Assembly (NCBI GenBank): GCA_965279515.1
Contig: CBDIID010000003.1
Span: 2,144,001 to 2,208,000, forward strand
Direction: 5' to 3'
DNA length: 64,000 nucleotides
Origin: Turneriella sp.
Lineage (GTDB): Bacteria > Spirochaetota > Leptospiria > Turneriellales > Turneriellaceae
Shown here: piece after piece, positions 6,748 to 22,047 of the stretch
How the letters are laid out: each line of letters starts with the position of its first letter
Numbering within the stretch: position 1 is the stretch's first letter
Program-made: the position numbers and the translations under genes
The notes under the pieces: generated by a model
The model's input: only the letters and a program-made list of their open reading frames with translations
What the model was told of the DNA's origin: nothing
The model's database searches: none

Positions 6748-8370
6748 TTATCTTGCGGAAAATATGTACGCGGCGCCTGTGTTCGGAGCGGAATTATCCG
6801 CACTGGCTTCCCAGGAGTTGGTAATTTGAGTTTCAGCGGCAGCTTCGAGTGAAGCGCCAGCAATAATTGTCCGGTTGCTCACCGCAACGGAAACACCGAA
6901 AACATCTCCGCTGTCAGCATTCGATGCCTTTAAGTATGCTCGTTGTGCCCAAAACTGACCCGATCGTGAAAAAACGTAAGCGGCCCCCGAGCTTGCGAGA
7001 GTGTTGTCGGAACTCGCAAGACTGCCCGGACTTACGGTGCGTTGGCTGGAATCTTCAAGGCGTGCCCCAACAACAACGATATCTCCACTAATGGATACCG
7101 AAAAGCCAAAACTATCGCCGACATCCGCATTTGAGGCTTTGAGGCATGCCTGCTGTGACCATAAGCCCCCCGACCGGGTAAAAATATATGCTGCTCCCGC
7201 ATCGCTCATGGCATTATTCGTATTCGCAAATGTACCGTTTTGTACGGAACGTTCATCGCTGTCCTCCGACATCGCTCCGACGACGATCGTATCGCCGCTG
7301 ATGGAAACAGCCTGTCCGAATGCATCGGTAGGACCGGAATTCGATGCCTTGAGATATGCCTGTTGTGTCCAGGTACCCGCTGAACGCTGGAAAACATAAG
7401 CCGCCCCGGAATTTGAACTGCTATTATCCGTGCTGGCAGCCGCCGTGTTTAGAACGGTATTCTGAGCGCTGTCTTCGAGATCTGCGCCGACGACCAATGT
7501 GTCAGCATCGAGCGCCACGGCGCGGCCAAAACGATCGCCTGTATCCGCATTCGATGCCTTAATATATGCGCTCTGCTGCCAGGCAGAACCGGTGCGCTGG
7601 AATATGTATACCGCGCCCGAATCTGCGGCTCCGTTGTCGAAACTAATCGTCCCGTTGTTGACGATCGTATTCTGCGCGCTGTCCTCATACGCCGCGCCGA
7701 CCGCAATCGTGTTTTGACTGACTGCGACAGAAGCGCCGAAGCCATCTGCGGGTTCGGCATTGGATGCTTTGAGATAAGCTTCGAGCGACCAGGTATCACC
7801 ATTGCGCACAAATACATAAGCGGCACCGGAATCTGTCGCGGCATTATCGCCGGCAATCGTCGAACCATTCGTTACAAAATTCTGGCTGCTGTCTTCTGAA
7901 ACAGCACCGACAACGATGGTGTCTCCATCGATCGCTAGCGATGCGCCGAAACTGTCACTGGCATCCGGGTTTGCGGGTTTAAGATACGCCTGCTGCACCC
8001 AGCTTGTCCCTGACCTGGCAAATACATAGACAGCCCCCGCACCCGTTAATGAGTTATCGCTGCTGGCGGCCCCCCCATTCACAATGTTTGGACTTCCCGA
8101 CGCTTCGGTAACGGCCGCAATCGCAACTGTGTCACCGCTGATCGCAACGGGATTTCCGAACCGGTCGTCGGCCTCGCCATTTGATGCCTTGAGGTAGGCC
8201 TGCTGCACCCACTCAAGGTCGCGGGCTGCAGACATTCCGGCTTCTGTTTCCCAAAAGCGGCCAAAACCATGGCAGCGCACTAACACAATCAGCAGGCATA
8301 GGGATAAATTCGGATGCAACGGATAAAATCTATGTTTTTTCCGTTTGCGACGCATGCGCGCGAATCTCAC
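6748..8370 (-). CDS. FG-GAP/integrin-alpha-like beta-propeller lipoprotein
   Basis: Seven repeats WxQQAYLKASN...DxFGxxVAISGDTIVVGA...GAAYVF; signal ending LVRC. Confidence 0.9.
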   Translation of the reverse strand: MRFARMRRKRKKHRFYPLHPNLSLCLLIVLVRCHGFGRFWETEAGMSAARDLEWVQQAYLKASNGEADDRFGNPVAISGDTVAIAAVTEASGSPNIVNGGAASSDNSLTGAGAVYVFARSGTSWVQQAYLKPANPDASDSFGASLAIDGDTIVVGAVSEDSSQNFVTNGSTIAGDNAATDSGAAYVFVRNGDTWSLEAYLKASNAEPADGFGASVAVSQNTIAVGAAYEDSAQNTIVNNGTISFDNGAADSGAVYIFQRTGSAWQQSAYIKASNADTGDRFGRAVALDADTLVVGADLEDSAQNTVLNTAAASTDNSSSNSGAAYVFQRSAGTWTQQAYLKASNSGPTDAFGQAVSISGDTIVVGAMSEDSDERSVQNGTFANTNNAMSDAGAAYIFTRSGGLWSQQACLKASNADVGDSFGFSVSISGDIVVVGARLEDSSQRTVSPGSLASSDNTLASSGAAYVFSRSGQFWAQRAYLKASNADSGDVFGVSVAVSNRTIIAGASLEAAAETQITNSWEASADNSAPNTGAAYIFSAR

Positions 8371-10914
8371 CTAGGGATTTACCGTAAACGTGCCATCCAG
8401 ATCATTCGTGGACCAGTTTCCGGCAGCGTCGTAGGCCTTAACACGGATGCGTGTCGTGCCAAGCGGCAAGCTGATTGCTCCTGTATATTCTGTGCCATTG
8501 GTAATCGCGATATGATCGTTGAGGAGGGAGTCCGTGGTCAAAGCACTGCCGTCGTCGGTTAAATAAATTTTATCGCAACTATGTCCCGAACATGTGATCG
8601 TCAGCGATTGCGGATTTGTATATGTACCCGGCGCCGGCGAAAAATTCAGCGTGGGACCGACGTCGTACCGCGCTAATGTAGTATAGATCGAAGCACCCAA
8701 TGCATCGACGAGGTTATAGACACAAACACGGACATCGTTTGATGAGCCTGCCCATGGAAATGCCGTGCTTGCATTCAGGCGCGTTGTCATCGTGCCCGTT
8801 GTAATCGTGCCTGCCCCAAGCCCATCGGATGGTGAATAACTGCCTGCAGCACAAGCGGCGGAACCTGTGCCACAGCCGGTAGGCCCCACGCAGATACGAA
8901 AGGGCAGTCCGGTGCGGCTCGATGTCCAGGTTAAATCGGTATAACGGAAGATGCCGCTGACGCCGACCGCACCACGGCTGCTACCGGAAATTGCAACAGT
9001 GGGAATGTTGCTGTCGACGTTATAACTCACCAAATGGCTCGAACCCTCGCGGTTGCCATAAGGGTCGAAACCCATGAATTTGATCTTCGTAACCTGTTGG
9101 TCAGGTACCGATATGCCGTTGGTGGTATCGTAGAGTGCACCGGTCGTAATCGTATCTGTCATGAAGTCGAAAACGGGCGTAGCCGGATCAGTGGGTGAAG
9201 AAACTCCCGAATTGATCGTAAAGGCAATGCTGCACCCGGTCGGAGCTCCCGTAGTGCAGGATAAATTTACTGTTGTGCCGCTGAAATTGCCCGCCGGCGT
9301 CGTATTGGTCGTCGTCGGTGCGTTATCCCAGCGATAAAATGGTGCATCGACGGAACCCCAGGTGCCGGCAAAATTCTGGCTGCAGACGCGCAGGTTATGT
9401 GTACCTGCAGAAATATCGGTGGCATTCAAAGTTAACGTATTCGATGCCGCAGTCGTACCCGAAGTAATTTGTGTGCCATCAGAGCAGGTTGTCGAATCGC
9501 GGCGGATGCTGTAAGGGGTTCCAACCCGGTTTGACGTCCACGGGATTGTCGCCGTCGTATGCCCGTTGGCACTCAGATAATATGTGGAAACCAGACCGAA
9601 CGTGAGTGTGGGCTGCACACTGTCTACGTTGTAGGTCACTGAATGGATTGCCCCCTCGCGGTTACCATAACGATCAAAGCTCGTGAATTTCACGGTGGTA
9701 ATTTTCTGATCCGGAGCAATAAAGCCACCGACCGGATACGATGTACCTGTTGTAATAGTATCCGCAGCCCCGATCGTCGGATCGGCGGGGGTGCCCGCCG
9801 ATGTGCCGGAGATCGCCGTGTAAGCAATGCTGCAACCACCCGACGAGCCAGAGGAACAAGATAAGGTTACGGTAGTGGGATTCGCCGTATGATTGCCAGC
9901 CGCGAGCGTTTGTACCGAAGTCGGCGGAGTATCCCAGCGCTCAAATGCAGCGCTCACAGAACCCCAGACGCCCACGTAATTTTTGCTGCAGATGCGCAGC
10001 GTGTGTGTGCCGGAGCTTAAATCTGTCGCGTTCAGCGTAAAAGTATTCGAGGCAGCCGTCGTTCCGGAAGCAAAAGGTGTACCGCTTGTGCAATCCGCAA
10101 CATCGAGGCGAACATCGTAGGCAACACCCGGCCTGTCTGTAGTCCAGGTGAAGGTCGACGAGGTATGCCCGGCGGCACTTAAATAATAACCTGAGAATGC
10201 CGGGTCGATGGCCAAAGTGGGATTCACAGAGTCGATGCGATAAAGCCCGCCCTGGGGTGTCGTTTCGGTATTCCCCGCCTTATCGACGCTGAGAAATTTC
10301 ACCGTTTGCTGGCTGGGGTTTGGCAATGAAATAGGCCCGGTATAAAGCAGCCCCGTGATAATTGTACCGTCTGCTGCGACGGCGGGCGTGGAAGCGTCTG
10401 TCGTATAGACGGTTTTGAGGCAGGTATCAGTGCAGGTAAGAACCAGCGACTGGCTCGTGCCATAATCTCCGGGACCAACGCTGGCTGTAGTAATGGGCGG
10501 GGTGTCATCCCTGTGAATCACGACACTGATCGCTAGCGCGGCCCCGGTCGCCGGGGTATAACAGATGACAATCGAATTATCACCCAATTGCAGTGCTGAA
10601 CTATGAAGACGGATAGTTTTTACTTCCCGCGCGGCGACAGAACCGGAGCCACCGGAGGCGAGCTGGACGCCGCTCTGGCAATCTCCGCCGAGACGGGCGA
10701 CATAACTGCCATCATTGGTGGCTAGCCATTCGAGATCCATGTAATTTCCCGCACCGGCGCCTGAAATGTATTGCGGAGGATTCCTGTTCCAGCTCAGCCT
10801 TGCGCGCCGCGGGTCCGTTTCGTTCAGGAAATTAACCATCCCCTTGGAGCAAGAAAGCAAAAACAAACCGGCCAAAAACAGTCCTTTGCCATGCTTCATC
10901 TGCAGAAATCTCAT
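8371..10914 (-). CDS. Large Ig/Fn3-associated (chitobiase C-terminal-like) repeat surface lipoprotein
   Basis: Lipobox LLSC; repeated units with YTTD..P, YTGPI, DKAGN/DRYGN/DPYGN/DAAGN; Thr/Ser/Gly-rich with paired Cys. Confidence 0.85.
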   Translation of the reverse strand: MRFLQMKHGKGLFLAGLFLLSCSKGMVNFLNETDPRRARLSWNRNPPQYISGAGAGNYMDLEWLATNDGSYVARLGGDCQSGVQLASGGSGSVAAREVKTIRLHSSALQLGDNSIVICYTPATGAALAISVVIHRDDTPPITTASVGPGDYGTSQSLVLTCTDTCLKTVYTTDASTPAVAADGTIITGLLYTGPISLPNPSQQTVKFLSVDKAGNTETTPQGGLYRIDSVNPTLAIDPAFSGYYLSAAGHTSSTFTWTTDRPGVAYDVRLDVADCTSGTPFASGTTAASNTFTLNATDLSSGTHTLRICSKNYVGVWGSVSAAFERWDTPPTSVQTLAAGNHTANPTTVTLSCSSGSSGGCSIAYTAISGTSAGTPADPTIGAADTITTGTSYPVGGFIAPDQKITTVKFTSFDRYGNREGAIHSVTYNVDSVQPTLTFGLVSTYYLSANGHTTATIPWTSNRVGTPYSIRRDSTTCSDGTQITSGTTAASNTLTLNATDISAGTHNLRVCSQNFAGTWGSVDAPFYRWDNAPTTTNTTPAGNFSGTTVNLSCTTGAPTGCSIAFTINSGVSSPTDPATPVFDFMTDTITTGALYDTTNGISVPDQQVTKIKFMGFDPYGNREGSSHLVSYNVDSNIPTVAISGSSRGAVGVSGIFRYTDLTWTSSRTGLPFRICVGPTGCGTGSAACAAGSYSPSDGLGAGTITTGTMTTRLNASTAFPWAGSSNDVRVCVYNLVDALGASIYTTLARYDVGPTLNFSPAPGTYTNPQSLTITCSGHSCDKIYLTDDGSALTTDSLLNDHIAITNGTEYTGAISLPLGTTRIRVKAYDAAGNWSTNDLDGTFTVNP

Positions 10915-10980
10915 TTGCGCTCCCTATGGTTGCGGCTCCGGATCCATTGACCTGCAGCTCTTACCATGTGCATAGTTCGT

Positions 10981-11007
10981 GAAGGTTTTCAAAAAAAAGC
11001 AACCTTC
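10981..11007. promoter_or_regulatory. Candidate operator in divergent promoter region
   Basis: GAAGGTT-N13-AACCTTC perfect inverted repeat between divergent starts 10914 and 11092. Confidence 0.35.
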
Positions 11008-11091
11008 TGGAAAAAAAATGTTGGGTTGTTGCAAAATCTGTCACGATACAACATACGCAGTCGTCAAAAGATTGCATGTAAAGGAGAGCGG

Positions 11092-11484
11092 ATGGAACTT
11101 GCTGAAAAAATCGCCAGTACAGGCTACGATGCGTCGGCGGAATTTAATATTCGTATGACTCGAGACGAGGATGTCAATATCATTGGTTTGTTCGGAGTCC
11201 TGAATATTTACACCAGCCACGAGCTCAAGAATGAACTTTTTGAACTGGCTGAGAATCGGGACACTAAGATCGTCCTTGATTTTGCCCATCTCGCTGGCAT
11301 CGACTCTGCCGGCATCGGATCGATTATTTCGGCGATGCACCGGATGCGGCGCATTCCGGGCGCTAAATTAATTGTATGTAATCTTACAGGCAATGTCGAA
11401 AAGCTCTTTATCGTTACGCGTATCATTTCACTCTTCACCGTGGTGCGCGGTGTGACCGAAGCATTAGAATTGATGCGCGATTGA
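11092..11484 (+). CDS. STAS-domain anti-sigma factor antagonist (SpoIIAA/RsbV-like)
   Basis: AAGGAG RBS; IVLDFAHLAGIDSAGIG with conserved phospho-Ser. Confidence 0.9.
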   Translation: MELAEKIASTGYDASAEFNIRMTRDEDVNIIGLFGVLNIYTSHELKNELFELAENRDTKIVLDFAHLAGIDSAGIGSIISAMHRMRRIPGAKLIVCNLTGNVEKLFIVTRIISLFTVVRGVTEALELMRD

Positions 11485-11490
11485 CGCTTT

Positions 11491-12129
11491 ATGGCAGTTA
11501 TCGGCAGTAGTGTGGGCGACGAGTTAGGCGCGGATTTTTTCCGTGAGGAGGACGTTCCCGCACCTGACTTCGAAGCCATGCACGACGCCCGACAGCGTAC
11601 TTTTCTCGCCTTTTACGGCAAATATGCGCCCAAAGCATACGCTTATGTTCGGTCGCGCAGTTTTGCCGATGAAACCGCCGACGATATTGTCCAGAAAGTC
11701 TTTGAGATTGCCTGGCGGCGCTTCGATGAAGTAGCCTCACACCCGGCTCCCGATCTCTGGATACTGCGCATCACAGAGAACACCTGTCGCTACGAACAAC
11801 GAAAATTCTGGCGGCGGCAGGAAGTCCTCATGGCCTCGAGCGCTGACATCGACAAAATGAATGTCGGAGACCTGGAAAAGGCCCGTTACCTGGAATCTCC
11901 TCTCGAGCGCCGGGCGATCGAAAATGAACTTTACCTGGCCCTGGAAAAATTTGTAAATAAGCTTCCCAAAAAGCAAAAAGAAGTCTTTCAGATGCGCATG
12001 AATGGCATCACCTATGAAGAAATCGGCTATGCCCTGCGCATCAGCGCAGAGGCGGCCCGGCGACGCATGCTCAGGGCCATTGAATCAGGTAAGCAGCTGT
12101 TTGGCGAATTTGTTGAACTTTTGGGCTAA
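11491..12129 (+). CDS. ECF RNA polymerase sigma factor
   Basis: Region 2 ADDIVQKVFEIAWRR..WILRITEN; region 4 LPKKQKEVFQMRMNGITYEEIG. Confidence 0.9.
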   Translation: MAVIGSSVGDELGADFFREEDVPAPDFEAMHDARQRTFLAFYGKYAPKAYAYVRSRSFADETADDIVQKVFEIAWRRFDEVASHPAPDLWILRITENTCRYEQRKFWRRQEVLMASSADIDKMNVGDLEKARYLESPLERRAIENELYLALEKFVNKLPKKQKEVFQMRMNGITYEEIGYALRISAEAARRRMLRAIESGKQLFGEFVELLG

Positions 12130-12203
12130 ACGCGCCCTGGATTACTGCTATTTTTTTTTAATTCCAAGGTTGGTTTTTCCCCGGTCTGACCACGTTATCA
12201 TGC

Positions 12204-13565
12204 ATGATGCCGTTTCGCCTGCGCGAAATATTACCCTACCACGACCGGCAGAGCCTGGAATTCCGCGGTCAATTCGTCATCTTTGCACGCCTCGTGCCGG
12301 TATTAGGGCTGATTCTGTTTGTTCTGTTCGGTGCTGTTTTGCGCCCCTTTGAAACTGAGGCGCAGGCAGCGGCTACACATGCATTGCGCTATTACCTTGT
12401 TTTGCCCTATTTTGTGTTCGTGATGCTTTTGGGCATGCACCGGCGTTACCGGCGCTTTTATCCGCCCCTGATCTGGGTGGGGGTTTTACTGCAGGGCGTT
12501 TGCACATTGGCCATGCTGCGGGTTTTTGATCCGGATTCCACTGCCTTTATTTTCTATTTTTTCGGCTTTGTCATGAGTTTTGTCGGGGCCTTTACCCTTA
12601 CGGGATTGTCCCTTTTCGGCGCCGTCTCGGTATCGGCGCTGCTATTCTGTCTCTTTGAAGGCCTGATTCTCTTCAAGTTAACGGTGCGGGACTCTTTCAG
12701 AAATGTGCTGCACCTGTTTATCTTCATGTTTTTGGGATTCGGGTTTATTTCGGCCTACCTCGTTAGACGTTCGATGAAAAAAGTTTTTGCTGCGCGGCGG
12801 GAGTTGCGCATCGAACGCACAAAAAGTACCCGTATGGCCCGGACTCTGCTCAATGTGCCCGTGCGCCTGCAATCGGCTTTGCTGCCGGCGATTCCTTCGC
12901 TGCCCGGCGCGGAAGCCGATTACTTTTGCGCCCCTGCAGAAGATGTGGGGGGAGATTACGTTGATATTATTTCCGCTGCTGACGCGCATTGGCTGGTTAT
13001 CGGTGACGTCAGCGGTAAAGGACTCACCGCAGGGCTGATTATGGTCATGACGCAGGCAAGCATTCACACGGCCGTCACAATGCTGCCGGACGCCAGCCCG
13101 GCCCGTATACTGGAATGCGTCAACCGCACCTTAACCCATAATATTGCGCAGATGGATCGCGATTTAAGTAAGTATGTCACGCTATCCCTGCTGCGTCTCG
13201 AACAAGATTGGCGGATTGCGCATTCGGGATTACACCAGGATATAGTTGTTTATCGCAAGAGCGGGGATTACCTGGAATTTATTCCGAGCATCGGATCCTG
13301 GTTAGGGCTACCGCAATGGCAGGGCGCATTCGGCGACGGTTACACGCGCCTGGAAGCGGGCGATATCCTTTTTCTCTACACCGATGGCCTGACGGAGATT
13401 TTTAAAGAAAATGTGGGCAACGATTCTGCAGGGCGTCTGTTTTCGATATTACGCAAATACGCACACGCACAGCTGGGCGAAATAAAAGAAAAGATCATTC
13501 TCGAAATGGACCTGAAGAATGCCGGCGACGATGCGGCCTTTATTTTGCTACGGAGAACCGCATGA
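12204..13565 (+). CDS. Membrane-bound PP2C/SpoIIE serine phosphatase (SiaA-like role)
   Basis: ~6 N-terminal TM helices; GGDYVD, IGDVSGKG, LYTDGLTE, GDDAAF motifs. Confidence 0.9.
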   Translation: MMPFRLREILPYHDRQSLEFRGQFVIFARLVPVLGLILFVLFGAVLRPFETEAQAAATHALRYYLVLPYFVFVMLLGMHRRYRRFYPPLIWVGVLLQGVCTLAMLRVFDPDSTAFIFYFFGFVMSFVGAFTLTGLSLFGAVSVSALLFCLFEGLILFKLTVRDSFRNVLHLFIFMFLGFGFISAYLVRRSMKKVFAARRELRIERTKSTRMARTLLNVPVRLQSALLPAIPSLPGAEADYFCAPAEDVGGDYVDIISAADAHWLVIGDVSGKGLTAGLIMVMTQASIHTAVTMLPDASPARILECVNRTLTHNIAQMDRDLSKYVTLSLLRLEQDWRIAHSGLHQDIVVYRKSGDYLEFIPSIGSWLGLPQWQGAFGDGYTRLEAGDILFLYTDGLTEIFKENVGNDSAGRLFSILRKYAHAQLGEIKEKIILEMDLKNAGDDAAFILLRRTA

Positions 13566-14080
13566 CGGTAAAAAGCCAGGGAATGATTCTGCTGCACAAT
13601 CTTGACCTCGTTGCGGATGTCGATCCGGAATACGAAAAATTGCATGAACTCGTGGAATCGCTGACGGGTGTTTATGGAAATCACGAAGTCAACGAAGGCG
13701 TACAACTGACACTCTATGAGCTCCTTGAAAATGCCATCAAATACTCCACGGCGCATCCCCCGGGAAAAATCCGTTTCTCTTTTAGCGTAAACCATGTGCA
13801 TGCCTGTGTCATGATCCGTAACCGCTGTATTTCGCTCGAAAACATCAGGGCATTGACACGCACCATAGATGAGATCAACCTCACGGATGGTGATGCATTG
13901 TACGAATCCCGGATGCGTGATTTATTTGAAGATCCCTATCAGGATAGGGTGCGGCTGGGCCTATTGCGCATCGTTGTCGAGGCCGGTTTTTCGCTGCAAT
14001 ATATTAAAACACGAAATTTTATCGAAGTAATAGCAACGAGAAAACTTGGAAAAAGGAAGGAAAATGCGGCAATTAGTTAA
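13562..14080 (+). CDS. SiaB/RsbW-like GHKL serine kinase
   Basis: ELLENAIKY N-box and LGLLRI G-box-like motif; lies between PP2C and SiaC-like gene. Confidence 0.7.
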   Translation: MTVKSQGMILLHNLDLVADVDPEYEKLHELVESLTGVYGNHEVNEGVQLTLYELLENAIKYSTAHPPGKIRFSFSVNHVHACVMIRNRCISLENIRALTRTIDEINLTDGDALYESRMRDLFEDPYQDRVRLGLLRIVVEAGFSLQYIKTRNFIEVIATRKLGKRKENAAIS

Positions 14081-14450
14081 GAATACCCACACAAAAGGAC
14101 TGCTGAAGTTGCACGAAAGCTGCGATGGTGAGACACTGACACTGGCATGGGAAGGAAAATCAGTGGATAAAAATCCAGGTGAATTTTTAAATCCTCTCTT
14201 ATTAAAAATTACCGAAGAGCCAGGGCTCGCCCGCGTCATTGTAGACCTGACCGAACTGGCGCAGATGAACTCTTCATCGATGCCATCGCTGATCATATTC
14301 ATGAAAAACCTGGAACGCAAGGGTATCGCCGCTGAGTTTTATTATTCGGCGGATTCGGAGTGGCAACGCATTGCCTTTCAAATGCTTGCAAATCTTGCAA
14401 AAACCATACCGAGCATCCGTGTCTTGACGGCGGCAAAAACAGCTGGATAG
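14064..14450 (+). CDS. SiaC-like (STAS-fold) phospho-acceptor protein
   Basis: LAWEGKS..NPGEFLNP, VDLTELAQMNSSS, YY....WQ pattern; AGGA RBS. Confidence 0.7.
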   Translation: MRQLVKNTHTKGLLKLHESCDGETLTLAWEGKSVDKNPGEFLNPLLLKITEEPGLARVIVDLTELAQMNSSSMPSLIIFMKNLERKGIAAEFYYSADSEWQRIAFQMLANLAKTIPSIRVLTAAKTAG

Positions 14451-14474: not shown

Positions 14475-15425
14475 ATGAGCAGAAAAAATGACCCGCGGGA
14501 CGCGGAAAAACAAAAAGCCTATATGGAAAAGATGCGCGCCTGGGACGCGCGGGACGAGGAAAATCAACAGGGCCCCACCAAAGATAATTTTTTATCGGCA
14601 TGGACAGCCAGTGTCGCACGTTTTCGCGCGACGCATTTCGGCTACCGGCCGCGACCGTTTCTATTTCCTGAGGAAAAGGCAAGGAAGGCACCGGTTTCTC
14701 TCTGGAGTAACAATTTGTTCCGGATTCCCCTCGCCGGATCTTTCGCGCTGGCGGCAGTATTGCTTGTGATTTTTTTATTTCCGAATCCAAACCCACAGGT
14801 GCCCTCGGAAACGGGTAAGGCCCTTACCGCGGGAAATTTTCCGCGAATCGGTGGATCGTTATTTCCGGGGAAATCCCTCATTTCGTTGGGCGATAAACGC
14901 ACCTTGCGCGTCACCCGGGGAGCATTGGTCGTCGTGGATGCACAACCCGGTGCAGTGCCTACGCTCGATCTCATGGGTAATGTAGTCCAAGGGGATTTTG
15001 ACCTGCGCGGCAAGACAAACCTAATTGTGCGTAATGCTTATATCCGGGTCGTTGTTACCGGCACCGCGTTCGGCATCGATTGGGCGGGTGAAACCGGAAA
15101 GGTTACTCTGCGGCGGGGCTCTGTGACCGTTGAACACAACAATGGCCAGCAATTACGCCTGAAACCGGGAGCTGAACTCAAGTATACTAAAGAGGGGATG
15201 CGCATAGCATCGGCGGGACCGCCTGCTCTTGCCCCGCCTGACAACAGGTTCATATTCAATATGAAGTCCGGGGAAATTCTCAAAGGGGTTCTGCTGAGGG
15301 AGAATGCGGAAAAGATTACGGTATTGAATGACGAAGGAAAAACTGTCGTGCTGCAGAAATCAGAAATCGATGATCGTATTCGGGAATCAGCAATCGTGAA
15401 GAAGGATCAGGACCATGAAGAATAA
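14475..15425 (+). CDS. FecR-domain transmembrane anti-sigma/sensor
   Basis: Single TM (FALAAVLLVIFLF), VVVTGTAFGI..VTLRRGSVTV..LKPG FecR motif, C-terminal extra module. Confidence 0.8.
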   Translation: MSRKNDPRDAEKQKAYMEKMRAWDARDEENQQGPTKDNFLSAWTASVARFRATHFGYRPRPFLFPEEKARKAPVSLWSNNLFRIPLAGSFALAAVLLVIFLFPNPNPQVPSETGKALTAGNFPRIGGSLFPGKSLISLGDKRTLRVTRGALVVVDAQPGAVPTLDLMGNVVQGDFDLRGKTNLIVRNAYIRVVVTGTAFGIDWAGETGKVTLRRGSVTVEHNNGQQLRLKPGAELKYTKEGMRIASAGPPALAPPDNRFIFNMKSGEILKGVLLRENAEKITVLNDEGKTVVLQKSEIDDRIRESAIVKKDQDHEE

Positions 15426-17487
15426 AATCCGCGTTTCCCTGGTTACAAAAATCTCCCTGCTGTTTTTCTCCCTGACCCTGCTGAATGTCTTGTTTTTCTG
15501 GATTTCAAGCGGCTCAAATCAACTCCGCCTTATTGCCGAGAAAGCAACAGCCGAAGCCCAGTCACAGGTCACGGAAATCAAAAAAAACATAGAACGCATC
15601 AACGGAAGCATTTTGGCCGGCACAAACACAGCGCAGTACGCCATTTCCATAAACAATGCCCTCGAAATGGCCGCACGGGATAAACAAAACAAAAGCGGCA
15701 CCTGGCCGGATTTCCAGTTGGTATCCGCCGGCGGTCGCGTTTTGATATCCTGGCCTAAAAAAAATATAACAGAGAGCGTGCTGAAGCCTGAGACCCTGAA
15801 GGCGGCGATTCGGGCAATTCAGCTTCGGGAATTCAGCAACACACAATTTTACGGCGAACCCGATGTATTACATTATTCCGTGAATGCCTTCATTCCGGTT
15901 TTTAACGCCGCAGATAGTGAAGTTGTCCTGGTAACAAAACTGAGCGTGATGAAAATCCGCGATGAACTCGACCTGTTACTGCGTTCGGCATTGGGAATTG
16001 TGGTGCTGCTCACGGTTTTACAGATTCTTGTGGGCGTAGTGATTTACAGAAAACTGCTGCGTCCCATTCTTGCGGTCACCCGTGCATCTGTTGAGCTCGG
16101 CGGAGGTAAGCACGTCGAAATCGAGCGTTATGCGAAAAACAACGACGAACTTGGAATCCTGGTACGCACATTTAACCAAATGAGCGTGAATATCCGCGAT
16201 CAGAAAACAGAACTGGAGAAGAATTATAAAGACCTGAAAAAGAAGAGCGATATGATGAACTTTGAACTGAATATCGCCCAGAAGATACAGGCGGCCATTT
16301 TACCGAAGGATTTCAAACCGGGAGGAATGCTCGTCGAAGCCGAGTATAATCCGCTCTATGGTGTCTCGGGAGACTATTTTGACTGGTTTCAATTCCGCGA
16401 TGGCAGCACCGGTTTTATCATCTGCGATGCCAGCGGCCATGGAGTACCCGCAGCGCTCTTAACGATTATGGCGAAATCCTATTTTTCTTCGTTTGCTGAG
16501 AGCTACGAAGACCCAGCGGCGCTCCTGCGCTCAGCAAACGCCGATATCGCCCGTGCCCTGGATGGCGGGGGGCACTACCTAACTGCTTTCTATGCGCGTA
16601 TTTATCCTGATGGCACTCTCAAATACGCCAATGCAACACACCCCTTGCCATTTGTTTTCGACGAAACGACGGGAAATGTCACCTCACTGGAAGCTCCCGG
16701 ATTTTATATCGGTTTGTTGCAAGACCTGCCCATGGATTTCGAGACCCGAGAACTGAAGCTGACGGCAAAACAGAAACTGGTCTTTTATACCGACGGTATC
16801 ACCGAGGCCATCAATGAGGCAGGAGACATGTTCGGTGACGACCGACTGAAAGCGATTGTTGCCGAATGCGGGGCTTTGCCACCGGCCGAACTGAAACAAA
16901 CGATACTAAAGGATCTTCAAACCTTCTGCGGAACTACGGCGCTGCGCGATGACGTAACCCTGGTTGTCATAGAGGTTGGTGAGGTTTTATCGGGTGCTCA
17001 CCGTGGACAAAACCTGAAAGAGGCTATTGAATCCTATCGCAGTTTTGACTTCACCAAAGCAATTGATATTTTCAATACTCTCCGTGCAGACAGTCCCGAA
17101 TTGATGACCGGGGCGGCATTGTCATACTTTGCCGACACCTATTTTAAGCTTAAACAATTCAGCAAAGCGCTGCCATTATTCAAAGAATACCTCGAGCGTT
17201 ACGGAGAAAGGGATGTAGTCCTCATGAAAATCGGGACCTGCCTGATGAAAGAGCGGCAATTCGACACGGCGCTGATGTACTTCCAGAGAGCCACGGATCT
17301 CGACAAGAATTTTGCCGAGGCATACGCCGGGGTTGCCGCATGTTTGATGCGCCTTGGTCGTACCGAAGAAGCCCTGAACTCTGTGCAAACCGCCCTGGCA
17401 TTAAAACCCGATGCTCCGCGCTTTCAAAAACTGCGCGACAAAATCGCCGCGGCTGCAAACGGAGATAAGGAGTTAGCTCTTGCCTGA
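15415..17487 (+). CDS. Periplasmic sensor-HAMP-PP2C/SpoIIE-TPR phosphatase
   Basis: Two TMs, DELGILVRTFNQM HAMP, SGDYFD, CDASGHG, YTDGITEA, RDDVT; C-terminal TPRs. Confidence 0.92.
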   Translation: MKNKIRVSLVTKISLLFFSLTLLNVLFFWISSGSNQLRLIAEKATAEAQSQVTEIKKNIERINGSILAGTNTAQYAISINNALEMAARDKQNKSGTWPDFQLVSAGGRVLISWPKKNITESVLKPETLKAAIRAIQLREFSNTQFYGEPDVLHYSVNAFIPVFNAADSEVVLVTKLSVMKIRDELDLLLRSALGIVVLLTVLQILVGVVIYRKLLRPILAVTRASVELGGGKHVEIERYAKNNDELGILVRTFNQMSVNIRDQKTELEKNYKDLKKKSDMMNFELNIAQKIQAAILPKDFKPGGMLVEAEYNPLYGVSGDYFDWFQFRDGSTGFIICDASGHGVPAALLTIMAKSYFSSFAESYEDPAALLRSANADIARALDGGGHYLTAFYARIYPDGTLKYANATHPLPFVFDETTGNVTSLEAPGFYIGLLQDLPMDFETRELKLTAKQKLVFYTDGITEAINEAGDMFGDDRLKAIVAECGALPPAELKQTILKDLQTFCGTTALRDDVTLVVIEVGEVLSGAHRGQNLKEAIESYRSFDFTKAIDIFNTLRADSPELMTGAALSYFADTYFKLKQFSKALPLFKEYLERYGERDVVLMKIGTCLMKERQFDTALMYFQRATDLDKNFAEAYAGVAACLMRLGRTEEALNSVQTALALKPDAPRFQKLRDKIAAAANGDKELALA

Positions 17488-19021
17488 TCAGCCGTTACAG
17501 TTATCGGCAGATCGCCCGGAAGACCGGCGTCCGGTTTGGCAGTTCGCCGTGCCGGCAGTTGTCGCCATAAGCATCATTGCTGGGGTCTTCATGCTGATGC
17601 GGGCAATTGCCGAAATACGTTTTCTCGAACTGGGCAGAAAACTCACAGAGCTGACTGGAAAACGTGAGGATATCCGAAACCTTAACATCTTAAAGCGCCT
17701 GCGACTCAACCAGGGCGGCTATAAAGATCAGGGTGATGAAAAAAAATTCGCGGAGGAGCGAAACCTGGCGATTGCTCTGGCGGTAACGCCAGATTCCACA
17801 GGGGGGAACAACGGAGAAGTGATCGCCCTGGGCGTCGTAAATTCCCTGAACCATATTCTTGGGCTACCTTTAGTCTATCTCTCGAAACCGTCAGCCGAAG
17901 AACGCCTCGCCGAAAACGCGTTTTTTTACGAAAAGCAGCGGAATTTCGCTAAGGCGCATGCCCTTTATGAACTGCTGACTGCCCGAAACCTGAGAGCCGA
18001 CCAGCTCGATTATGTGCTTACCCATAAGAGTTTCTGCGCAGCCATGATGGGAAAATATGCGACCGGCATTGCCGATCTCGAAAAACTAATGCAGACCTCA
18101 AAGAACCAGGCAAATATTGCTTTGGCTTCGGAGATGCTGTTGATTATCCGCGGTCAGGCCGATAAGACCAGACAAATCGACACCCATGCCAGCTTAAATG
18201 CCAAGGCCGAATATTATCACCGAATTGGCGCCTTTGCCGAGGCCGCGCGGGTTATCGCCGAAATTCCTGAAGCAGGCCGCGATTCCCGTGTGCTGTTCCT
18301 GTACGGCCGCGCTCTCGAAGAGACGGGACAGGCCCGTGAAGCCGCAATCAATTATCGTACCGCAATCCAAAAAGACGCATCCTCTGCAAACGCAATCCAG
18401 GCGAACCGCCGGTTATATGCACTGGGCGCATTTTACGGCCAGGGAAAGGCCTTGCGCGAAGAAGCTAAGGAAAACTCAAAAAACATAACTCTCGACACGC
18501 AGTTTTTCAAATCAGCTCAGGCATCGGAAAGCCTGATCAGTTCCCTCGACAAAGATATGGCAATGGAGACCGAAAAATCGCTTGCCTTCGAAAAAGACCA
18601 GGGTATTGAGCAAGCAAAACCCGGCCCTACGGTAGAAACTCCTGCGGCTAAGAACGAACCAATGAAACCGACGCTTCCGGCGCGCCCCCCTGCGCAGCAG
18701 ATAATGAATCGCAAACCCCAGACGATAGTCCAGGCAGACGTACCCGTAAAGGCACCGGTCGAAGACCTTACGAATCTCCGGGACATGGCGACTGCACAGC
18801 GTGCTGAGAAACTGACTCGGTTGGAGAAAAAGGCACTGCTCGCAAAGCGCTACCGTCAAATTGACCGCCTTCTGACCGATGACGGGAATGAATTTTTCGG
18901 TATTATTTTTGCAGAGAACAAGAACAAGATTTCTATTTTCACAATCATGGGCAACCTTGAAATAAATAAAGAGGACATCACCGAACGTAACAAAGCACCG
19001 ATCAAATCTATTATGCAATAA
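17480..19021 (+). CDS. Membrane-anchored TPR protein with Pro-rich linker
   Basis: N-terminal TM, TPR-like helices (LFLYGRALEETG..EAAINY), Pro-rich stretch, C-terminal beta module; TTG start overlaps upstream stop. Confidence 0.8.
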   Translation: MPDQPLQLSADRPEDRRPVWQFAVPAVVAISIIAGVFMLMRAIAEIRFLELGRKLTELTGKREDIRNLNILKRLRLNQGGYKDQGDEKKFAEERNLAIALAVTPDSTGGNNGEVIALGVVNSLNHILGLPLVYLSKPSAEERLAENAFFYEKQRNFAKAHALYELLTARNLRADQLDYVLTHKSFCAAMMGKYATGIADLEKLMQTSKNQANIALASEMLLIIRGQADKTRQIDTHASLNAKAEYYHRIGAFAEAARVIAEIPEAGRDSRVLFLYGRALEETGQAREAAINYRTAIQKDASSANAIQANRRLYALGAFYGQGKALREEAKENSKNITLDTQFFKSAQASESLISSLDKDMAMETEKSLAFEKDQGIEQAKPGPTVETPAAKNEPMKPTLPARPPAQQIMNRKPQTIVQADVPVKAPVEDLTNLRDMATAQRAEKLTRLEKKALLAKRYRQIDRLLTDDGNEFFGIIFAENKNKISIFTIMGNLEINKEDITERNKAPIKSIMQ

Positions 19022-19788
19022 TGCTTAGAATCACCGCGCGACTGTTTTGGCTGGCATCATTATTGATTCCGTTTGCGGCCGCTTTTTCCCAATCTGAAAA
19101 GAGATTTGATTTTTTTTGCCTCGATGGGCAGCACGTACGAAACGCGGAGATCGATCATGAAACAGAACAGGGTTTTTATGTCAGGCTTCCCTACCTTAAG
19201 GATCTCATTTTTGTTGATCGCGATAACCTAAGTGAACCCCCGGTACCCATCCAGAATAAGAAGAAAGACGAAAAACAGCCGGCACCAGCGACCAAACGAC
19301 CTTTGGGCAAATGGAAGTTTGGGCTTGTCGGTAACTATACATACTCTTCGCTCATGATATCACCCCTGGGAGAAATTTTTACGCCAACGAGTGTGTTTTC
19401 AGCAGGCACCTTCGTTGTCTTACCCCGCCCATGGTTGTATTTTATCGATGGGTTTCATGCATTCGGGTCGTATCAGCGCTATGTCAATGAGCCCCGTTAT
19501 ATTGAGATCATCGGCGGTTACGTGGGAACGCGGCTTGCCTGGTGGAACTTTGAGCGATTCTCCCTGAAGATTATTACCGAATTATCCGTCGGCATGGCGA
19601 GCGTCGATATGAAAGGTTTTACTTTTACGAAAAAAAATCTTTCCGCGATGGTAAACGGAATGACCGGCATATCATTTAATCCCGGAGCTTTTTATCTTTC
19701 CGCCGGCGTCGCGGTCGACTATGTCCAGGATTCCGACGTCATGTTCTCCCCGCTGGGCGTCACGTTGCGTGTGGGCTTCACTTTTTGA
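19021..19788 (+). CDS. Small outer-membrane beta-barrel protein with N-terminal module
   Basis: Signal peptide AFS|Q, amphipathic strands, C-terminal GVTLRVGFTF BAM motif. Confidence 0.7.
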   Translation: MLRITARLFWLASLLIPFAAAFSQSEKRFDFFCLDGQHVRNAEIDHETEQGFYVRLPYLKDLIFVDRDNLSEPPVPIQNKKKDEKQPAPATKRPLGKWKFGLVGNYTYSSLMISPLGEIFTPTSVFSAGTFVVLPRPWLYFIDGFHAFGSYQRYVNEPRYIEIIGGYVGTRLAWWNFERFSLKIITELSVGMASVDMKGFTFTKKNLSAMVNGMTGISFNPGAFYLSAGVAVDYVQDSDVMFSPLGVTLRVGFTF

Positions 19789-19820: not shown

Positions 19821-19905
19821 ACAGAATATTTTCATTCACAGGTTGCATTTCCACATTTGCTGTAACGATACTCGGTAGAGTTTGGTGTACGCAATCGGAG
19901 GTAGC

Positions 19906-22047
19906 ATGAGAAGAATCGGTTTCTTAAACAGCCAATACACAGGCTTCAGCGGCTCGCTATTTCTGGTCTTGATACTTTCAACCGCTCAGTGCACAAGGGG
20001 ATTGGCAGGCTTCATGGGCGAGAGTGATCCGAATTTAGCGCGTATCCGCATGCTCAATAATGCTCCGGTCTATCTGTCGACCATGCCCGGCGCCGTAGAC
20101 AGCGTTGAGCTGCAATGGGAAGCAACGCAGAGTGGAATTTTTAGCGTCTACCTGAATGGCAGCTGTTCAGCGGGGACTCCCTTACCGGTTGCCGGCAGTG
20201 GATATATTGAAGCAGGTACAAAAGCAAAAATCCCCCTGCACGCTGCGGACCTCGATATTGGCAACAATACCTTAACCATTTGCCTGACGGTCGACAAAAC
20301 AAGCGTCGTGAAGGCGGTATCCCATATCGTCGTACGCGATGACGTACCACCGGTTTCCACGGCATTCCCGGGCAGCGGAGCTTTTGCAGAAATGCCGGCA
20401 GTCACGCTGAACTGCTCCGATAACTGCTTAAAGTTAATATATACCCTGGATAATTCTGACCCCGATATTGCCGCGGATGGACGGATCCTGAACGGATTTG
20501 TTTACTCGAATGCGATACAATTGCCATCCGCAACTACTAACCTCAAGGTGCTGGCAGTGGATAAAGCCGGCAACCGGGAAGCGGTGATACGCACCGAAGC
20601 ATACCAACAGGATTTCGTGCCCAACCTTGCCATCACGAACGTCACGCGCTCAAAAATGAGCGTTAACGGTTATTCTTCTTCGCAGATTGATTTCACAACC
20701 GACCGCCCGGGGCTACCTTATACACTACGATTGGATACTACAGACTGTAGCTCCGGCACGATCATAACCTCGGGCACGACTACCGCAACGACGAGTCTCG
20801 TTTTCACGGCCGCGAATTTGACGAGCGTTGGCACCCACACCCTGCGCATCTGCGGTCAAAGTTTACTCGGCAACTTCGGCGCAATCAGCACCACAATAGA
20901 CCGTTCTGATGCCGCGCCCACTGCCAGTATAACACCCGCGGTTTCCAATCACACAGTCTCTGTACCCGCGCCTGTGATATCCTGTACACCAGCGGCCGGA
21001 GCTGTCATCGCTTATACAATTAACGGCGCCACACCGGTCATCGCTGCAGATGGCACCATCACCACCGGAACGGCATATGCCGGGCCCTTAACTCTCCAGG
21101 ACCAGCTGCAAAGTATTGTGCGGGCAAGATGCCGGGATGCCTACGGCAATCTGAGCGCTTTGAAATCCCAAATCTATAATGTCGATACGGATAATGGCAT
21201 CGTCCTGACCCTGTCGGCAACCAAGACCTTGGCCGCCGGCACCACATCCCTGGTTTTCGACTACACTTCAACGCGAAATAATATTCCAGGCAGGATACAG
21301 GCCGACACGGTAACAACTTGTTTCGGGGGAACGACCTTGTCATCGCCAACCGGAAACCTAAGTGCCCTGGTTTCAAGTTTGGTTTCAACAGATAACACAA
21401 CGGTTGGTTTCAGACTGGCGGCGCGAAAAGTTTCGGGGGATTGCGTATTTTCAAACTCCATAGCCATCACCAGGGACGATTCACCGGCGGTGATTACGTC
21501 AAATCTTGCCTCTGGGCCTTATATGGGCGCTCAATCGGTCACGCTGGTTTGCGCAGACAATTGTACCAATATGGCATACACCGTCGATGGTTCGGCACCG
21601 GATATCAATCCTGATGGCACGATCAATCACGGCATGCAATACTTATCCCCCATTGCCATACCATCGGCCTCATTATTAACACTTCGGGTTGCTGCATCAG
21701 ATCAGGCGCAAAGAGTTTCAACCGCGACGTTTGATTATTCGACAGATGCACCGCAACCCGTCCCCATCAGCACGATTTCGTTAGATACTACATCGCTCTC
21801 ATCGGCCACACAAACGGCAACGTGGGTTTGGAATGCCGGGGCGGCAGGGTTGTTTTGGACGACAAGGAAAGCGTCATCCAACTGTTCTGATGGCACTGTT
21901 TTGCAATCTGGTGTGACCAATATCGGAGATACGACAATTAACGTATTCTGGCAATCGGGGTTCACGGGAATTTTGTCGATTCGATTATGCGTTACCAACG
22001 GTACTGCAACCGAATTTGTCATACAAGGATTTTCGAATTCGCCTTGA
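19906..22047 (+). CDS. Ig/Fn3-associated repeat surface lipoprotein, paralog of 8371-10914
   Basis: GGAGG RBS; STAQC lipobox-like; shares DxPPxxTA, VDKAGN, TTDRPG..Y, GTHTLRIC motifs with paralog. Confidence 0.85.
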   Translation: MRRIGFLNSQYTGFSGSLFLVLILSTAQCTRGLAGFMGESDPNLARIRMLNNAPVYLSTMPGAVDSVELQWEATQSGIFSVYLNGSCSAGTPLPVAGSGYIEAGTKAKIPLHAADLDIGNNTLTICLTVDKTSVVKAVSHIVVRDDVPPVSTAFPGSGAFAEMPAVTLNCSDNCLKLIYTLDNSDPDIAADGRILNGFVYSNAIQLPSATTNLKVLAVDKAGNREAVIRTEAYQQDFVPNLAITNVTRSKMSVNGYSSSQIDFTTDRPGLPYTLRLDTTDCSSGTIITSGTTTATTSLVFTAANLTSVGTHTLRICGQSLLGNFGAISTTIDRSDAAPTASITPAVSNHTVSVPAPVISCTPAAGAVIAYTINGATPVIAADGTITTGTAYAGPLTLQDQLQSIVRARCRDAYGNLSALKSQIYNVDTDNGIVLTLSATKTLAAGTTSLVFDYTSTRNNIPGRIQADTVTTCFGGTTLSSPTGNLSALVSSLVSTDNTTVGFRLAARKVSGDCVFSNSIAITRDDSPAVITSNLASGPYMGAQSVTLVCADNCTNMAYTVDGSAPDINPDGTINHGMQYLSPIAIPSASLLTLRVAASDQAQRVSTATFDYSTDAPQPVPISTISLDTTSLSSATQTATWVWNAGAAGLFWTTRKASSNCSDGTVLQSGVTNIGDTTINVFWQSGFTGILSIRLCVTNGTATEFVIQGFSNSP

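Follow-up and report, generated by a model that had tools for sequence, protein, structure and literature searches.

Genes and terminal modules of the locus

The window analyzed here is a 64,000 nt stretch of a 4.9 Mb Turneriella sp. genome (contig CBDIID010000003.1, positions 2,144,001 to 2,208,000). It contains a plus-strand run of genes in which a small domain, predicted to have an Hfq-like fold, ends two inner-membrane signaling proteins and begins the adjoining outer-membrane barrel protein, as it does in many relatives. According to library scans of the window's open reading frames (ORFs), the run that holds all three module genes extends from a STAS protein to a Kelch-like protein, in the order STAS protein, extracytoplasmic function (ECF) sigma factor, SpoIIE phosphatase with six transmembrane (TM) segments, slr1658-like regulator, slr1659-like regulator, FecR-like protein, HAMP-SpoIIE sensor with tetratricopeptide repeats (TPRs), single-TM TPR protein, small barrel, lipoprotein and Kelch-like protein (Table 1). 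The FecR, sensor, TPR and barrel genes are linked by overlaps at their junctions, and the barrel's start codon is overlapped by the stop codon of the TPR gene. A preliminary description of this DNA had proposed that three envelope proteins of the operon share an Sm-like module, which hetero-oligomerizes and links the barrel to FecR in place of the usual STN domain of a TonB transducer; the three peptides it quoted are in frame, in the genes and at the places it assigned to them. The module is real, conserved and built from a named but uncharacterized domain.

The FecR-like protein has a weak match to PF04773 (E 0.08, below cut-off). Its family profile ranks the Bacteroidetes anti-sigma structures 4m0n and 4m0h first, and its GT motif (residues 196-197) is invariant in 27/27 homologues. 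A partner-switch cluster at window positions 10966-14450, comprising the STAS protein, the six-TM SpoIIE phosphatase and the slr1658-like and slr1659-like regulators, separates the sigma factor from its FecR and is kept in L214, an orthologous metagenome locus; three genes intervene in the window, and the two are adjacent in paralogues. In L214, all nine genes occur in the same order, and the modules are better conserved than their host proteins, with identities of 55% (FecR), 67% (TPR) and 70% (barrel) inside the modules and 47%, 42% and 56%, respectively, outside them.

Table 1. Coordinates of the operon features in the window, with related sensors at two other loci.
Feature	Position	Strand	Evidence or composition
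STAS anti-anti-sigma protein	10966..11484	+	PF01740 E 3.5e-12; TIGR00377 over cut-off
ECF sigma factor	11491..12129	+	TIGR02937 64 bits, cut-off 42.9
Six-TM SpoIIE (PP2C) phosphatase	12204..13565	+	PF07228 E 2e-26; six hydrophobic segments
slr1658-like HATPase-fold regulator	13562..14080	+	NF047703 E 2e-12, below cut-off
slr1659/STAS-like regulator	14046..14450	+	NF047705 E 1e-4; PF01740 E 2e-4
FecR-like anti-sigma	14475..15425	+	Cytoplasmic N-terminus, TM 84-102, FecR beta-domain, C-terminal module
Sm-like module 1, FecR C-terminus, aa 258-303	15246..15383	+	NF047433 24.8-30.6 bits; HHalign
Membrane sensor	15415..17487	+	TM, periplasmic domain aa 32-191, TM, HAMP, SpoIIE, TPR; PF00672, PF07228, TPR
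Single-TM TPR protein	17480..19021	+	Pro/Ala/Lys-rich linker, then C-terminal module
Sm-like module 2, TPR C-terminus, aa 461-507	18860..19000	+	Model with predicted local distance difference test (pLDDT) 86, five strands and a 3-10 turn
Outer-membrane protein, 255 aa	19021..19788	+	Signal peptide, module, linker, 8-stranded OmpA/NspA-like barrel
Sm-like module 3, barrel N-terminus, aa 28-74	19102..19242	+	Last strand interrupted by Pro-Pro in the model
Large predicted lipoprotein	19882..22047	+	Fn3-associated/CHB_HEX_C repeats; PF13290, PF13287; lipobox-like Cys seen by eye
GGDEF-output sensors with the same periplasmic domain	L223:2273-3658, L224:5731-7125		Before TM-TPR and barrel

Homology, predicted fold and membrane placement of the modules

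Comparison of family profiles with HHalign points clearly to homology between the FecR and TPR modules (probability 96-97%). The barrel module is the weakest of the three, as first described, with profile probabilities of 17% and 63% against the FecR module and 0.8% and 5% against the TPR module, each in two alignments. Single-sequence BLAST aligns the FecR and TPR modules at 29% identity over 31 aa, and the TPR and barrel modules over 8 aa only. Likewise, the residue pattern proposed for all three is fitted only loosely by the barrel module, because N-A or G-A replaces the single G of the others. Hidden Markov models seeded with one module and iterated stayed inside their own class, without reaching the other module classes. 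Whole-protein searches returned two relatives of the barrel protein and one of the TPR protein; metagenome scans added one barrel locus and no TPR locus, and neither the TPR nor the barrel module profile had a meaningful match among PDB sequences.

Among library families, NF047433 (Lepto_7_Nterm, the N-terminal domain of LA_0442/LA_0875) matches the FecR module best, and profile comparison indicates that the two are homologous. The module's score is below the NF047433 cut-off of 43 bits, and the TPR and barrel modules are not listed at all. Compared with profiles of the Lepto_7-type N-terminal modules of other barrels, the FecR, TPR and barrel modules reach 98%, 95% and only 64%, respectively. 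Unlike NF047433, two of the three window copies are C-terminal; only the barrel module lies directly after a signal peptide. The modules are thus remote, below-cut-off relatives of an uncharacterized Leptospira domain. They are shared by the operon's proteins, as had been noticed, but are not specific to the operon, as NF047433 has matches in 154/164 genomes of the class. In a genome-wide count, one of the checks proposed earlier, 21/4708 ORFs carry the module at E<0.05, all of them at a protein end, while reversed decoys give 0; 14 of the 21 have another module gene no more than four ORFs away. The count is not independent, since most of these ORFs seeded the profiles; the module occurs more often than chance.

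The model of the barrel protein (pLDDT 90, from 27 sequences) has an N-terminal unit of four strands with a 3-10 turn, in which a vestigial fifth strand is interrupted by Pro-Pro; a low-confidence linker and an 8-stranded barrel follow, the latter matched by Foldseek to OmpA, Ail and NspA at E about 1e-5. In a search of 48,161 chains, the only listed matches of the N-terminal unit are two Hfq structures and Kustd1711 (Z 7.5, root-mean-square deviation (rmsd) 6.8); for residues 1-58 of the model, the Hfq comparisons give Z 7.6 with rmsd 2.9 over 54 positions, and Z 7.3 with rmsd 1.5 over 51. For the TPR module model, the matches include the Kustd1711 nose domain at Z 7.3, the BirA C-domain at 6.8 and Hfq at 6.4-5.9, as well as Sm/LSm proteins. 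Both models have the hallmarks of the five-stranded Sm/Hfq fold, a long bent beta2 and a 3-10 turn before beta5, with beta5 degenerate in the barrel module. As both match Hfq, they bridge the gap left by the remote sequence match of the barrel module. A search against viral folds returned barrels only. For the FecR module, the fold prediction comes from profiles, which give 82% to Hfq by HHalign and otherwise weak matches, mostly to Sm/LSm/Hfq chains (E 0.0015-0.5). The predicted Sm-like fold is therefore backed by models for two modules and by weak profile matches for the third. All module Z values are below 8, a level that the tool rates as a common arrangement, and the BirA C-domain and designed SH3 barrels have scores nearly as high as those of Hfq/Sm; as a result, Sm-like is the best label and no proof of descent.

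The modules share their predicted five-stranded fold with Hfq, Sm and LSm proteins and with the Kustd1711 nose (PDB 7zs0), which PMC11791136, in its accessible text, describes as Hfq-like, acidic and exported, giving extracytoplasmic Hfq folds a precedent. Unlike Hfq, the window modules are fused and exported, are neutral to acidic (net charge 0 for FecR, -3 for TPR and -5 for the barrel, compared with +3 for the Hfq of relatives) and lack the YKH RNA-binding motif, whose Y and H are absent from the alignments. RNA binding was rejected as a function on account of the missing motif and the export, and the further marks of an Hfq RNA chaperone, a basic surface and a free cytoplasmic protein, are absent as well. 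NF047433 also matches the Hfq genes beside miaA (L070, L072, L074-L076).

All three modules are predicted, from TM segments and a signal peptide, to lie on the periplasmic side, in line with the preliminary description. The FecR-like protein has one predicted TM segment, the TPR protein one conserved TM segment, and the barrel protein a signal peptide and eight strands. A second TM segment in the TPR protein was considered and rejected, the second stretch not being hydrophobic in 17/17 homologues.

Gene coupling and distribution in the class

In the barrel family, the gene context of the module is strong. All 28 homologues found with the barrel query have a module-ended gene directly upstream, which encodes a TPR protein in 22 cases and FecR in six, two of the latter with a STAS gene between FecR and barrel. 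A module profile run over 190 genomes of the class gave 30 matches, confined to 14 genomes of one family, as is this module subtype; 29/30 of these barrels or secreted proteins lie just downstream of a module-ended TPR or FecR gene, the new ones being one TPR-coupled protein and one orphan. Independent cases are fewer than 28, because the tree places 13 in one orthologous locus. The FecR-coupled barrels fall on one side of a single branch (87/78), and the window barrel groups with the TPR-coupled ones, which makes a barrel-TPR-phosphatase link the likelier one here. The docking first proposed is supported by gene context, but in the window the barrel is no less likely to be linked to the HAMP-phosphatase sensor than to FecR. 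A matching of the proline-broken beta5 to TPR-type partners was considered as co-evolution and rejected; the pattern belongs to a single branch of the tree and is broken by L017, L022 and L215.

The coupling extends to the sensor. Four sensors of the genome contain this periplasmic domain, and each of their genes directly precedes one of four TM-TPR-module genes. In another family, the pairing returns with another subtype of barrel module and another output, as L223 and L224 encode a HAMP-GGDEF sensor, a TM-TPR protein with the module, a barrel of Lepto_7 type and a large lipoprotein; their sensor domain is homologous to that of the window (E 5e-10 and 2e-7). FecR, TPR and a single barrel occur together in the window, L214, C3:3479033-3484488, L038 and L039, while TPR-barrel loci without FecR exist (e.g. 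C3:1717473 and C3:3410844) and many FecR-barrel loci are without TPR. Within this genome, 7/13 proteins with an N-terminal module lie near a gene with a C-terminal one, compared with 4/25 TolB-like barrels (Fisher p 0.024), an enrichment that is modest and partly circular.

Variants of this layout were also seen. Directly after a TM-TPR gene, L014:55-1737 encodes a 560 aa protein with the module, three Ig-like repeats and a barrel, and L050:502-4071 encodes a 1189 aa protein with the module and about eleven Ig-like repeats; the TPR partner in L014 has two module-region matches. A two-component pair lies between FecR and the module barrel in G000:C3:1816752-1821681 and L041, whereas FecR and the barrel are direct neighbors in L031, L032 and L054.

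Beyond the barrel family, NF047433 has up to 35 matches per genome, and in Leptospira-type genomes FecR proteins, LipL45 included, frequently carry the module at their C-terminus. A FecR-plus-module profile gave 11,381 matches; among the best 150, which were inspected, 100 have one C-terminal module (88 of them with a TM segment at 40-130), 31 have several, with up to 8 copies, and 19-20 have none. The multi-copy proteins fit self-associating units. A sample of one genome per genus, selected with this profile, yielded 32 loci, 21 with an adjacent sigma factor; the 11 without a tagged adjacent sigma factor were left out. Of the 21, 19 have the module, and across these 19 sigma-FecR(module) loci a second module gene is adjacent in 12, encoding an outer-membrane protein in five and a LipL45-like lipoprotein in seven. 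In 11/11 named Leptospira loci, FecR(module) and sigma are divergent from an NF047433-type DUF5683 protein; being orthologues, these loci count as one case.

In LipL45 (NF033165, 669 bits; L113 = G097:C1:2209405-2212707) and its relatives L111, L114, L115, L118 and L131, the module follows the FecR domain. It is not mentioned in the accessible text of PMC13719327, in which Sm-like, Hfq, SH3 and TonB likewise have no match. In L180, L184, L188, L193, L194 and L230, the order is sigma, FecR(module), LipL45-like lipoprotein(module) and a membrane gene of roughly 200 aa. By eye, we take this last gene to be ExbB/TolQ-like; L180 and L230 presumably also have an ExbD-like gene, and the arrangement may be an energized form of the system. 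A different partner type is found in L120, L126, L128, L133, L176, L183 and L187, operons of Leptospira-type genomes in which sigma and FecR(module) are followed by a two-TM HAMP protein of about 180 aa, without a barrel. Further, P0029, P0033, P0067, P0111 and P0140 are secreted proteins with 3-8 module copies, some with terminal barrels; one of them is annotated at its source as Hfq, probably wrongly.

Proposed docking across the periplasm and competing explanations

The operon has several features of the FecA-FecR-FecI, PupB-PupR-PupI and FoxA-FoxR-FoxI systems, including an ECF sigma factor, a single-TM anti-sigma with a FecR beta-domain and GT motif, and a small C-terminal anti-sigma domain that is mirrored at the N-terminus of an outer-membrane protein. 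As reported in the accessible part of PMC7186176, the C-terminal STN subdomain of PupR is a structural homologue of PupB's signaling domain, and binding requires both subdomains of PupR; for FoxR-FoxA, the corresponding part of PMC11637429 presents a model in which STN strands join in one sheet, and reports that the contact shields FoxR from proteolysis. In contrast, the window module is all-beta, with a predicted Sm fold in place of STN, and its partner is a plugless, 8-stranded OmpA-like barrel of 255 aa rather than a TonB-dependent transporter with plug, large barrel and STN. Also unlike those systems, there is a putative second branch, which would lead through a TM-TPR protein to a sensor with PP2C or GGDEF output. 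Neither STN (PF07660) nor FecR_C (PF16344) exceeds its cut-off in 5/5 genomes, and the module stands where PupR and FoxR carry STN, so that the replacement of STN proposed at the outset is supported in terms of position. The architecture thus resembles cell-surface signaling but falls outside that class for want of an STN domain and a TonB transducer.

We give about an even chance to the interpretation that the modules are periplasmic docking handles, bridging outer- and inner-membrane proteins without TonB; that the system is a new, TonB-independent variant of cell-surface signaling seems to us equally balanced between belief and doubt. The argument for docking comes from gene context, which is strong in the barrel family and partial in the class. 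In this mechanism, the predicted Sm-fold domain that begins the small barrel protein would bind, presumably by beta-edge pairing, a similar domain that ends an inner-membrane protein. In the window, the TM-TPR spacer would relay the signal from the barrel to the HAMP-SpoIIE sensor at its periplasmic domain; the sensor would then control how far the STAS proteins are phosphorylated and, through this, the STAS switch and the sigma factor, with FecR as a second inner partner. In sigma-FecR-barrel operons, the barrel would dock on FecR directly and hold or release the anti-sigma, as STN-STN contacts do in PupBR and FoxAR; elsewhere, a barrel or a lipoprotein would dock on FecR. At the loci that encode FecR, TPR and one barrel, FecR and TPR may share the barrel module or compete for it. 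A candidate sensor of the signal is the lipoprotein whose gene often follows that of the barrel.

Sm and Hfq folds oligomerize by pairing of beta-strands (beta4-beta5). Because prolines interrupt the last strand of the barrel module in the model, a ring-like hetero-oligomer is doubtful. Together with the established Hfq geometry, the broken strand suggests that the barrel module may cap a short chain, without ring closure.

A number of observations weigh against docking. An 8-stranded barrel is plugless, and no energizing route is known for it. The barrel and TPR modules are both acidic, without charge complement, and once shared history is allowed for, the distances of the modules do not covary (partial r -0.07 for 17 pairs, at low power). 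The TPR protein has basic residues on both flanks of its TM segment, with a modest charge bias, and its topology is deduced. Among 11 TPR loci found without the barrel query, a barrel is next in three, none is next in five and a contig edge intervenes in three; in L050, an Ig-repeat protein without a barrel has the module at its N-terminus. Four more sigma-adjacent proteins of this genome have module-like ends, judged by eye, and no module barrel, two of them having TolB-like barrels. In the wider class, a second module gene is missing from 7/19 sigma-FecR(module) loci, no FecR or TPR module gene lies closer than 1.5 kb to any of the 30 best NF047433 loci in genomes of the Leptospira family, and most Leptospira NF047433 proteins are without such a neighbor.

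The main rival explanation is that the module serves this class as an accessory domain of general use in the periplasm, with peptidoglycan, a common hub or a shared chaperone or assembly factor as its binding partner, and that the barrel and lipoprotein are regulated outputs of the sigma factor or partner switch rather than transducers. We regard this as rather unlikely, yet it accords with the 5-35 NF047433 matches per Leptospira-type genome, whose top loci are without signaling neighbors, with modules on LipL45, the LIC_13076 family and many unrelated secreted proteins, with the 25 TolB-like barrels in similar operons of this genome, of which four are near loci with a C-terminal module, and with the Kustd1711 nose, an extracytoplasmic Hfq-like insert for which the accessible text of PMC11791136 mentions no oligomer. 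It does not explain why barrels beside module-ended TPR or FecR genes carry the module instead of the commoner TolB-like domain (7/13 vs 4/25), nor the 29/30 coupling and the retention of the module when the sensor's output is GGDEF.

Two further explanations remove the barrel from the contact. The modules may pair like with like, or among inner-membrane and lipoprotein partners (FecR-TPR, FecR-LipL45 or homo-oligomers), organizing a sensor complex for which the barrel is dispensable. This is quite improbable in our estimation; the barrel module, whose last strand is proline-broken, is much more distant from the FecR and TPR modules than these are from one another, 7/19 sigma-FecR loci are paired with a LipL45-like lipoprotein, and five TPR loci have no barrel next to them, but many TPR-barrel loci have no FecR, many FecR-barrel loci have no TPR, and conservation of the barrel protein is highest in its module. 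Still less probable, and hardly to be expected, is that the TPR protein faces the cytoplasm and regulates SpoIIE, in which case its module could not meet that of the barrel and their likeness would reflect the shared ancestry of a small, promiscuous fold. The modest charge bias at the TM segment, the poor sequence likeness to the barrel module and the commonness of TPR and Sm folds in the cytoplasm agree with such a topology, while the short basic N-terminus that precedes the TM segment in most TPR homologues, typical of N-in signal anchors, speaks against it, as does the fact that the TPR gene is strictly coupled to that of the barrel and to a sensor with a conserved periplasmic domain and variable cytoplasmic output.

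Docking, if it occurs, may reach beyond the barrel family. Tentatively, and leaning against it ourselves, we consider a class-wide, TonB-independent family of trans-envelope signaling systems with an Hfq-fold plug-and-socket code, in which barrels or LipL45-type lipoproteins would dock on FecR or on TPR spacers that feed PP2C phosphatases or diguanylate cyclases. A close named system is LIC12756-LIC12757-LIC12758 of L. interrogans, which shares with the window a FecR-like regulator of about 350 aa and an ECF sigma factor; unlike in the window, the Leptospira partner is a DUF5683-type protein that is divergently transcribed. L121/L161 and L203-L213 are, from layout and size, probably orthologous to LIC12756-58, the named records being from species other than L. 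interrogans. A 2026 paper (PMC13118517) suspects LIC12758, which has a Lepto_7 N-terminal domain, to be the partner of LIC12756-57. The accessible texts of that paper and of PMC12155086 report no leptospiral TonB receptor with a signaling extension, describe the outer partner of leptospiral FecI-FecR pairs as missing, and do not mention a like domain borne by FecR, its fold or docking; the module offers a candidate for that partner. Further, S. meliloti NsrA-CyaK/CyaD is similar in linking an outer-membrane barrel receptor to inner-membrane enzymes without a sigma factor, and different in its barrel and outputs, with no Sm-like module reported in the accessible part of PMC7529298. A literature search, which did not extend to supplements and subscription journals, found no description of the fold, function or docking of NF047433 or the module.

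If the interpretation is correct, Leptospira-type bacteria would signal across the envelope without TonB receptors, the missing outer partner of LIC12756 would have a name, and LipL45 and dozens of Lepto_7 proteins would have a mechanism. The module thereby suggests a role for the abundant, uncharacterized domain NF047433 and for the C-terminus of LipL45, and docking handles would be an uncommon extracytoplasmic use of the Sm fold.

Regarding the neighboring genes, the lipoprotein of the operon is a candidate surface sensor or regulated output, and is absent 3′ of the orthologous barrel in L214. A scan for promoters and terminators gave results at chance level. On the minus strand, at window positions 6748-10914, a divergent pair encodes a large lipoprotein-like protein with Fn3-associated repeats and an FG-GAP propeller; the former is paralogous to the lipoprotein at 19882-22047 and is divergent from the operon in L214 too.

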